Part shown: one piece after another, positions 16,544 to 19,391 of the stretch
Layout of the letters: every line of letters starts with the position of its first letter
How positions within the stretch are numbered: position 1 is the stretch's first letter
NCBI GenBank assembly: GCA_963664405.1
Contig: OY761158.1
Coordinates: 5,760,001 to 5,824,000, forward strand
DNA from: Thermoanaerobaculia bacterium
GTDB taxonomy: Bacteria; Acidobacteriota; Thermoanaerobaculia; Multivoradales; Multivoraceae
DNA length: 64,000 nt
Direction of reading: 5' to 3'
Made by a program: the position numbers and the translations under genes
The notes under the pieces: generated by a model
The model's input: only the letters and a program-made list of their open reading frames with translations
Databases searched by the model: none
What the model was told of the DNA's origin: nothing

Positions 16544-16707
16544 AGACCAGCGTTTCCAAAGTTCGCGCACATATCTCGGGCCCTTCTGCCCGCTGGCGTC
16601 GTTTCGCCTCCTCGACATATTGCCCCAATATGCCTGCGTCGGCGCGCCTAGCCAGCGAACAGAATGACCTCGAGCTATGCAGCACGAACTTTGGAAGCGC
16701 TGGTCTA
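16544..16707. mobile_element. ~163-bp palindromic MITE-like repeat, copy 1
   Basis: Terminal inverted repeats AGACCAGCG(T/C)TTCCAAAGTTCG; closely similar to 27902-28065 and 55679-55843. Confidence 0.85.
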
Positions 16708-17304
16708 ACTGCGACCGGGTAGCGTCGTACTCGTTTCTGACGCTTGCTCGGTCTCGGGATCCAACTCCAGCCCTAGACCATCGGCCAGTCGGGTCAGATA
16801 GTTGAAGAGACCGACGATATGAGCGATCTCCAAAATGCCCTGGTCATCGAAGCCGAGATTCCGCAGTGGCAGCCAATCCTCTTCGACCATGCGGGTCGGC
16901 GTCGCTGACAGCTTTTCAGCAACGGTACACAGAGCGAGGTCTCGCGCGCTCAGGGAGGACTCGAGCTCCTGCCAGCGGTTTTCCTTGATCGCCGCGACAA
17001 GGTCTTCGGCGCCTGCTTCCATACGCAGAAACTCTGCGTGGGACTGGGTTCAGTAATGACAGTCCTGGGCCGCTGACGCGACCGCCGCGATCATCTCTTT
17101 TTCGCGCCGCTCGAGGGCGCTCGGCAGAAACATGATGGTGCCGAAGAGCTTGGCGAAGGGGCGGCCAATGCGCTCGTGCGTTGCAAGCAGTCGCCCCATA
17201 TTGGGGACGAAATCGACGTCGTAGTGGTTGCCCGTGGCCCGGCCGGGGGCCAACAACTCATCCGAGGGCAGCTCGACCCAGGCTTCGGTCCGATCGGTGC
17301 TCAT
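16705..17304 (-). CDS. AhpD/carboxymuconolactone decarboxylase-like selenoprotein (Sec at 17050-17052, CxxU)
   Basis: ORFs 17050-17304 and 16705-17022 are in frame across [30 protein letters not shown]...[12 protein letters not shown]. Confidence 0.88.
17023..17039 (-). promoter_or_regulatory. Bacterial SECIS-like hairpin
   Basis: ACGCAGA-GTT-TCTGCGT perfect 7-bp stem; loop begins with G, 17 nt after the UGA. Confidence 0.7.
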
Positions 17305-19190
17305 CCTTCATCTTTCTGGCCGACGTAGATCTCGGCTCCCGCGTCGCGGAACTCCTGGCTCTTCTCTTCGAGCCCCTGATCGAGGCCTTCGAGCACCGGC
17401 AGGCCTTGTGCGGCGGCGTAGTCGCGAATCTGCTGCGTGATCTCCATCGAGCAGAACTTGGGACCGCACATCGAGCAGAAGTGAGCCACCTTGGCGCTCT
17501 CCTGAGGCAGAGTCGCGTCGTGATATCGACGCGCCGTGTCCGGGTCCAGGGAGAGGTTGAACTGGTCTTCCCAGCGGAATTCGAAGCGCGCCTTCGAGAT
17601 CGCGTTGTCGCGCACCTGCGACGCTGGATGCCCCTTGGCGAGATCCGCGGCGTGGGCCGCCACTTTGTAGGTGATGACGCCTTCCTTGACGTCGTCTCGG
17701 TCGGGCAGCCCCAGATGCTCCTTCGGAGTGACGTAGCAGAGCAGCGCGGTGCCGTACCAACCGATCATTGCGGCGCCGATTCCGGAGGTCAGATGGTCGT
17801 AGCCGGGAGCAATATCGGTGGTCAACGGGCCAAGTGTGTAGAACGGCGCCTCGTCGCACCATTCGAGCTGTTTTTCCATGTTCTCTTTGATCATGTGCAT
17901 GGGCACGTGACCCGGGCCTTCGTTCATGACCTGGACGTCTTGGTCCCAGGCGCGCTTCGTCAGCTCACCCTGAGTTTTGAGCTCGGCGAACTGGGGCTCA
18001 TCGTTGGCGTCCTCGATCGAGCCGGGGCGTAGCCCGTCACCGATCGAAAAGGAGACGTCGTAGGTAGCCATGATCTCGCAGATCTCGTCCCAGTGGGTGT
18101 AGAGGAAGTTCTCCTGATGGTGGGCGAGACACCACTTGGCCAGGATCGCGCCGCCGCGGCTGACGATCCCGGTACGCCGCGTAGCGGTGAGGGGGATGTA
18201 GCGCAGTAGCACACCGGCGTGGATGGTGAAGTAGTCCACTCCCTGCTCGGCCTGTTCGACGAGAGTGTCGCGAAACATCTCCCAGGTCAGCTCTTCAGGC
18301 ACTCCATCGACTTTCTCCAGAGCTTGATAGATGGGCACCGTGCCGATCGGGACCGGAGAGTTGCGGAGGATCCACTCACGGGTCTCATGAATGTTCTTCC
18401 CGGTAGAGAGATCCATCACCGTATCGGCTCCCCAGCGGGTGGCCCAGACCATCTTCTCGACTTCTTCTTCGATCGAAGAGCTGACCGCTGAATTGCCGAT
18501 ATTGGCGTTGATCTTCACCAGGAATCCGCGGCCGATGATCATCGGCTCGAGCTCGGGGTGATTGATGTTGGCGGGGATGATCGCTCGACCCCTGGCGACC
18601 TCCTGGCGGACCAGCTCGGGAGTGATCTCCGCCGGGATCTTTGCCCCGAAGGCCTGTCCCGGGTGCTGGTGGTCGAGATCCGCGATCGTTTGCAGCTTCA
18701 TATTCTCGCGGATAGCAACAAACTCCATCTCCGGAGTCACGATACCTTTCCTCGCGTAGTGCATCTGCGTGACCCGATGGCCGGAGCGCGCCCTCAGAGG
18801 GTTGCGTCTGCGCTCGAATCGGACTGAGTCGAGCCGGGAGTCGTGGGCCCTGAGGCGACCGTATTCGGAGCTCACGTCGGCGAGCTCGTCGACGTCCGCG
18901 CGGTCGAGGATCCAAGGCAGCCGCACCGGCTCCAGGCCTTGGCGCACGTCGAGGTCCACGCGTGGATCCGTGTACGGTCCCGAAGTGTCATAGACGCGGA
19001 GCGGCGAGTTTGGCACTTCGAAGTCTTGTCCGTCCACGTTTGCGCGGAGCGTTGGAGACTGCTCGATCTGGCGCATCGGGACGCGGATCGAGGGGTCTCC
19101 GCCTTCGATATAGACCTTGGTCGAGTTGGGAAACGGGTCCCGAGTAATCAGAGACTTCTGGGTGTCCGGCAGGCGCTCCGCTATCGACAT
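17301..19190 (-). CDS. thiC: Phosphomethylpyrimidine synthase
   Basis: [39 protein letters not shown]. Confidence 0.98.
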
Positions 19191-19279
19191 GGTTTTCTCT
19201 CCAGGCGGCTGCTTGGCCGCGTTGTCATAAGACCGAATCTCAGCGCCGGTTTTGGGAAGGGAGTCGGATCAAAAGGCTC

Positions 19280-19391
19280 TCGCTTCCCTGCGCCGGTGCT
19301 AGCCGGTACCGCAGCGCCGCGTCGCGACGCTGCTAGGTTCAAGGGCTTCCCCGGGCCTTGCCGGGGTCTCAGGCACTGCCACACCCAGCGA
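19280..19391 (-). ncRNA. TPP riboswitch, variant with an inserted hairpin
   Basis: Minus strand: TCGCT-GGG...CTGAGA...CCCTTGAACCT...CCGG-CTAGCA-CCGG-CGCAGGGA-AGCGA, upstream of thiC. Confidence 0.88.

Follow-up and report, generated by a model that had tools for sequence, protein, structure and literature searches.

A selenocysteine-encoding AhpD-like gene overlapping thiC is probably a translationally coupled passenger in one lineage

Selenoproteins of the AhpD-like type with a CxxU motif form a described family, for which PMC1088965 gives 27 sequences and PMC2398784 gives 299; the family is named 'AhpD-like protein, TIGR01926, CxxU' in PMC13188914 and has its own BSepDB page (PMC13326102). 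Its members ('AhpD-like 1' of the Sargasso and GOS selenoproteomes) combine the CxxU motif with a SECIS element whose loop carries a G, and they occur as Sec/Cys pairs. In DR1765 of Deinococcus radiodurans (PDB 6k40), which has the same fold and no thiamine link, the second motif position is Cys; a DR1765 mutant is H2O2-sensitive, the CxxC motif is required, and lipoamide proteins, with NADH, act as the reductants of AhpDs (PMC8945050). Two other known systems bear on the locus described here, namely the RF00059 riboswitch of the E. coli type upstream of thiC, which in E. coli also triggers Rho-dependent termination (PMC5234074), and the UxxC selenoproteins represented by D-proline reductase PrdB and the GrdB-like proteins, which are common in marine data (235 in PMC2398784). 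Judged by titles and abstract openings, literature searches gave nothing on thiC or a TPP riboswitch together with a selenoprotein, nor on a thiC-AhpD operon, and no connection with thiamine is mentioned where PMC13188914 deals with selenoprotein operons.

In the window (the whole 64-kb stretch of DNA that was analysed), thiC encodes a phosphomethylpyrimidine synthase of 629 aa (17301..19190, minus strand; 1049 bits against NF006763, cut-off 650) and runs directly into an AhpD-like gene on the same strand (16705..17304, 199 aa). The preliminary description had reported that the thiC stop overlaps the next start, and the ATGA is indeed present at 17301..17304. Read-through extension of thiC as the source of this overlap was ruled out, the ThiC tail being one residue longer than that of E. 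coli; the closest named non-identical relative of this ThiC comes from Thermoanaerobaculia (82% identity). With TGA read as U, the downstream frame is open over 199 codons and contains C82-H-Y-U85, so that the reported C-H-Y-TGA in place of the AhpD CxxC is borne out, with the Sec codon at 17050..17052 (minus strand). Beyond the AhpD-like gene lies a repeated element of ~166 bp with terminal inverted repeats (16542..16708; three copies in the window, 83-96% alike), which separates it from a convergent gene and overlaps its TAG stop with one end.

The TGA codon is followed by a bacterial SECIS hairpin (17023..17039, minus strand) with a perfect 7-bp stem and a 3-nt loop opened by G, this G being the 18th base after the UGA (17 nt between), as first described. 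The 26-mer folds better than expected (z -4.07). The convergent PrdB/GrdB-like gene (15616..16533, plus strand, start codon uncertain) has, as was also claimed, a matching geometry: U-P-D-C with the Sec codon at 16177-16179 and a 6-bp stem at 16191-16207 whose G is likewise at the 18th position; its 49-mer folds no better than shuffled sequences (z 0.19). As a measure of chance, such a TGA-hairpin arrangement is seen at 26 of the 1668 TGA triplets in the window, 8 of them from one tandem array, and a Cys three codons away reduces the number to 4 of 1668, two of which are the two selenoprotein genes.

Conservation was assessed in related loci from a scan of GTDB genomes, which returned at least 599 pattern matches, at least 274 of them confirmed; the best 80 of these, with 55-68% identity to the window protein and none above 68%, were examined, and they include at least 10 near-copies from Binatia. 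Among these best 80 loci the Sec position is TGA in 79 and TGC in one, which rules out a sequencing error or a pseudogene. All seven stem pairs are retained in 71 of the 79 TGA loci, six in 7 and three in 1, while the single Cys locus keeps 4 of 7. The stem codons are fixed at choices that are otherwise rare in these genes (Ala 0.91 versus 0.09, Phe 0.96 versus 0.18, Arg 0.95 versus 0.12); because synonymous codons are fixed against this background and lost in the Cys locus, conservation of the stem as a by-product of protein conservation was ruled out. In an alignment of 75 distinct rows, with the Cys locus left out, 97.9% of cells are paired, as opposed to 14-70% in slid controls, and compensatory (two-sided) change was seen at one pair, in 3 sequences. 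The loop G stands at +18 after the UGA in 79 of 79 TGA loci, a position also fixed by a Glu codon. The 88 database homologues of the protein comprise 71 C-terminal halves that begin right after position 85, 16 sequences that span it and 1 N-terminal half; the spanning ones carry Cys or else Trp or Gly, and the Trp and Gly would be UGA translated under other codes. On these comparative grounds, the data show UGA85 to be recoded to selenocysteine via an in-frame SECIS.

Genes of the selenocysteine machinery (selA, selB, selC and selD) were not found within the 64-kb window, and no tRNA-Sec was detected in the 60 of the best 80 related loci that were scanned; selB- and selD-like matches near AhpD-like homologues occurred at 3 of these best 80 loci and were weak and partial. 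The convergent protein is unrelated to the AhpD-like one. It shares UxxC and PF07355 with the PrdB and GrdB-like selenoproteins, but it scores under the cut-off for the PrdB equivalog TIGR04483 (154.5 bits, cut-off 300) and just under that for subfamily TIGR01918 (64.7 versus 65.45 bits), and it lacks prdA or grd partners among the 39 window ORFs scanned. Of the best 80 loci, 1 has a PrdB-like gene in the vicinity of the AhpD-like one.

The preliminary description held that AhpD-like Sec proteins exist, in agreement with the selenoproteome surveys and with the TIGR01926 score of the window protein (118 bits, cut-off 81.8, with C written for U); against the AhpD_rel_CFYUT equivalog NF041238 it stays under the cut-off (61.7 bits, cut-off 175). 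By motif and profile it is a real member of the already-known selenoprotein family (TIGR01926; COG2128), from which it differs only in genomic position, behind thiC and without a Shine-Dalgarno (SD) sequence of its own. Its best solved relative is DR1765 (E 2e-21, 30% identity), with which the Glu, both Cys positions and the His align, and the predicted structure (pLDDT 93) is an all-helical AhpD fold with a TM score of 0.79 to 6k40. The model was built on an alignment of 70 rows (the window protein, 63 of the best 80 loci and 6 database proteins, 17 near-copies or truncated loci being left out), in which E68, E70, C82, position 85 and H89 are invariant (70/70); in a quick tree of these rows, 32 of 67 inner branches remain open and the window protein falls in a weak group (83) with loci L001 and L009. 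The spacing E70...C82-H-Y-U85...H89 fits the Glu-His-Cys relay of M. tuberculosis AhpD, with Sec at the nucleophilic position. The best reading of the protein is thus an ordinary thiol/selenol oxidoreductase, predicted to act as a general peroxide or disulfide reductase: the selenolate of U85 would reduce peroxides or an oxidised partner, and the oxidised Sec would be resolved by Cys82 and re-reduced via dihydrolipoamide/NADH as in other AhpDs.

Translational coupling to thiC, which had been proposed from the overlap, appears probable. The best anti-SD duplex of the AhpD-like gene reaches -1.7 kcal/mol. Across 78 homologous loci (those of the best 80 with a callable start, for which the best candidate start was taken, favouring the homologues) the median is -10.2 kcal/mol, and only 1 of the 78 is as weak. 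An in-frame stop two codons upstream of the ATG excludes an earlier start. In this genome the gene therefore probably depends on translation of thiC. Other weak SD sequences occur in the window (egtB -2.4, aceE -3.0 and the PrdB-like gene -2.0 kcal/mol), and the gap between egtB and aceE, whose functions have nothing in common, is 3 nt with a weak SD, illustrating tight packing of unrelated genes in this genome. The same ATGA overlap is found at aceF-lpdA (26471-26474), a true operon in this window, an observation that counts against the view of the AhpD-like gene as a passenger. A promoter scan of 15300-19700 returned 0 sites and is uninformative, as even thiC received none.

The survey, set beforehand as the test of a conserved thiC plus AhpD neighbourhood, went against it within the loci sampled. 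ThiC was found near the AhpD-like gene in none of the best 80 of at least 274 loci (55-68% identity). Upstream DNA reached at least 150 nt in 79 of them, 2 kb in 68, and 9 kb on both sides in 46; since 150 nt of the thiC 3' end suffices for detection (E 1e-12 in a control), an abutting thiC would have shown in 79 of 80. Canonical TPP aptamers were likewise found in 0 of 80, by a method that recovers 3 of 3 E. coli aptamers and is blind to insertion variants like that of the window; Rfam detected none in the 9 of 9 loci tried, and a looser pattern, which found 1 of 3 E. coli controls, gave 11 matches in the loci, of which the stricter test upheld 0. When eleven thiamine proteins of E. coli were searched against the best 80 loci, the only matches were generic ABC-ATPases, one thiE-like match 8 kb off and one thiF/MoeB-like match 7.5 kb off. 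A crude ORF caller, some of whose short predictions are probably spurious, places a divergent ORF nearest upstream in 39 of these loci and a co-directional one in 38, and gives no upstream ORF in the other 3. When 58 of the 77 upstream ORFs were scanned (19 cluster duplicates being skipped), 37 had a Pfam match, spread over ~30 families, with 0 from thiamine metabolism, three redox proteins (GST, redoxin and OsmC) and one NadA; neighbourhoods are common only to close kin. No fusion of ThiC to an AhpD-like domain was found: the 1 longer homologue is a methyltransferase join, the 119 ThiC relatives reach at most 670 aa, and none was seen among the 27 of 150 representatives with at least 246 aa, 10 of which are sigma-factor fusions (this long-protein search being weak evidence).

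In light of these data, the reading that we favour, at a probability of roughly 70%, is that the AhpD-like gene belongs to no thiamine-selenium pathway but became, in one lineage (probably within Thermoanaerobaculia), a passenger translationally coupled to thiC. It would be a free-floating unit of one gene that can settle downstream of a wide range of genes; here it would have lost its ribosome-binding site and would start by re-initiation at the thiC stop. At high TPP it would probably be turned down together with thiC, owing to where it lies and not to any role in thiamine metabolism. The earlier proposal of an operon that functionally links thiamine and selenium is not upheld, given the lack of thiC in the best 80 of at least 274 loci, the varied neighbours and the missing fusions. 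The nearest loci of Thermoanaerobaculia type (L009, L057 and L079) have no thiC nearby. L009 is from Ca. Multivoraceae, which belongs to this class; ThiC P0113 and the L009 AhpD-like gene seem to be encoded in the same genome, unlinked and separated by more than 10 kb. Some observations count against the passenger status: to go without an antioxidant each time TPP is abundant would seem costly, barring a second promoter or gene copy, and the C-terminal D-E-G of the window ThiC recurs in the 82% identical ThiC P0096. This ending occurs in 3 of 119 ThiC matches, the other two being 99-100% identical to the query, and its codons form the overlap region, so that the thiC-ahpD junction may be shared within the lineage, a hint that it is older than this species.

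Lineage-specific recruitment, in which the selenoprotein would be kept behind thiC to shield or repair the 4Fe-4S cluster or thiols of ThiC during thiamine synthesis, draws on that shared D-E-G end as well as on the ATGA overlap and the lost SD. NadA, like ThiC a cofactor enzyme of the oxygen-labile 4Fe-4S kind, provides a parallel in one Chloroflexota clade (5 loci), where the AhpD-like gene lies 0.1-4.3 kb downstream of nadA, a placement that also counts against a mere passenger. A TPP-dependent pyruvate dehydrogenase with lipoyl E2/E3, a known type of AhpD reductant (PMC8945050), is encoded 3-9 kb from the AhpD-like gene. However, the nadA case is confined to that clade and is not abutting, aceE/aceF are found in 0 of the best 80 loci, and the absence of thiC from those same loci and of any ThiC fusion bears against recruitment, which we consider unlikely. 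Its fullest form, a Sec AhpD drawn into the TPP regulon as a dedicated redox guardian of ThiC, fed by the lipoyl arm of pyruvate dehydrogenase and placed under an insert-tolerant TPP aptamer, is marginally less likely.

Whether the passenger would follow TPP depends on the thiC leader, in which the preliminary description had placed a TPP riboswitch. An atypical aptamer is present directly 5' of thiC (19268..19396, minus strand), with a short P3, P3a and an extra hairpin between P4 and P5. In a manual layout P1-P5 all pair and the conserved J3/2 and J2/4 blocks are in place, as is the location upstream of thiC, whereas the Rfam match to RF00059 (35.5 bits, E 0.00024) stays below the gathering score of 54.3, which nothing in the window attains; the helices, junction blocks and position thus speak for the riboswitch, and the family score does not. 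This score can be ascribed to an additional hairpin of 23 nt and 10 bp that interrupts the aptamer between P4 and the J4/5 bases (19311..19333, minus strand; -19.2 kcal/mol, 0 of 200 shuffles as stable), the other departures from RF00059 being one added base before P5 and one loop-5 change. Neither the Rfam consensus nor any of the 3 E. coli aptamers compared has the insert, which is single-copy in the window; no plasmid relatives of an aptamer with this insert were found, nor was a TPP riboswitch variant with an insertion at P4/J4-5 in a literature search with narrow terms and mostly without subscription papers. A pyrimidine tract (19254..19263, minus strand) is a candidate anti-aptamer and pairs with the 3' strand of P4/P1 in the free fold. 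Modelled folding left the SD and C-rich tract equally accessible in the free and the aptamer-held leader (unpaired 0.54-0.55 versus 0.58-0.64), supporting neither an SD-sequestration nor an exposed-rut model, and no intrinsic terminator was found in the leader. By analogy with E. coli, Rho-dependent termination at thiC would extend to a coupled cistron.

Expression that does not respond to TPP, whether driven by a promoter within thiC or due to an aptamer that the inserted hairpin keeps from switching, would be compatible with a score 19 bits under the family cut-off, with the unchanged accessibility and lack of a terminator, and with the stand-alone state of most homologues, 39 of the best 80 being divergent from the nearest called ORF. 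It is nevertheless improbable: all conserved aptamer blocks are present, the insert forms a hairpin that closes cleanly on itself, the leader contains a competitor helix for the aptamer 3' strand, and the gene lacks the SD that initiation of its own would call for. Since this lack of a ribosome-binding site points to coupling to thiC, TPP control of the AhpD-like gene is plausible in this genome. What stands of the thiamine-regulated selenoenzyme first envisaged is thus a Sec gene with plausible TPP control via coupling; a functional link between thiamine and selenium is not supported, with thiC at 0 of the best 80 loci. The proposal of a role in thiamine salvage fares worst, as a salvage or detoxification enzyme for small molecules, although conceivable on a fold that hosts other chemistry (the debrominase Bmp8, active on bromopyrroles, matches the model with a TM score of 0.69), is hardly credible when nothing in the data points to thiamine salvage chemistry, the best 80 loci have no match to thiD, thiM, thiG, thiH, thiS, thiB or thiP, and DR1765-type proteins match far better.

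If the AhpD-like gene is a passenger of thiC, it is one more member, in a chance position, of a selenoprotein family described in 2005, and its place behind thiC matters little. Two by-products are of some use. One is a SECIS of unusual clarity, whose nucleotides are conserved over ~10 phyla in a gene that is cut into two by standard gene callers; the other is a TPP aptamer missed by Rfam owing to its inserted hairpin. Were recruitment true, ThiC would be the first client assigned to an AhpD-like selenoprotein, which would itself be a first riboswitch-controlled selenoprotein in thiamine synthesis.

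Convergence of the AhpD-like CxxU selenoprotein gene with a gene for a PrdB-like UxxC selenoprotein, as found in the window, recurred only once among the best 80 of the 274 confirmed GTDB loci carrying homologues of the former: in locus L050, a PrdB-like gene with an in-frame TGA (16289–16963, minus strand) faces the AhpD-like gene across 5.7 kb. In one Chloroflexota clade (L016, L017, L031, L032 and L042), nadA lies 0.1–4.3 kb upstream of the AhpD-like gene. The TPP aptamer 5' of thiC carries an inserted hairpin (19311–19333, minus strand) in its pyrophosphate-sensing arm, and its score falls below the Rfam cut-off because of this insertion.

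On the plus strand, acyl-CoA synthetase, egtB, aceE, aceF and lpdA genes are tightly packed (19495–27904): two gaps measure 28 and 3 nt, and at one junction the genes overlap by ATGA. The encoded EgtB scored above its cut-off (460 vs 360) and did not reach that for the selenoneine synthase SenA (305 vs 420). An element of ~166 bp that resembles a MITE, being bounded by terminal inverted repeats and having CTAG-like ends, occurs at 16542–16708, 27901–28066 and 55678–55844, and two of these three copies overlap the TAG stop codons of the AhpD-like gene and lpdA. A tandem array at 61354–62184 (12 copies of a 68/70-bp unit, 94% alike, with an internal palindrome) contains no unique spacers and is therefore not CRISPR-like. 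Repeats of 15/60 bp at 2503–2818 (minus strand) encode a Lys/Ala/Pro-rich stretch of histone-H1-like composition.

An ORF block at 9257–12741, without NCBIfam match, looks mobile by eye; it contains an overlapping gene pair and putative MobC-like and replication-initiator-like ORFs. A serine recombinase-like ORF lies at 3665–5107. A tandemly duplicated gene pair (34161–38785, minus strand; ~80% alike, 2.3 kb apart) likewise gave no NCBIfam match.

Among long database proteins with AhpD-like domains, ten of ~600 aa (P0226, P0231, P0233, P0262, P0267, P0280, P0281, P0294, P0295 and P0338) fuse an ECF-type sigma-70 domain to two AhpD-like domains, and these fusions are possibly redox-sensing sigma factors.
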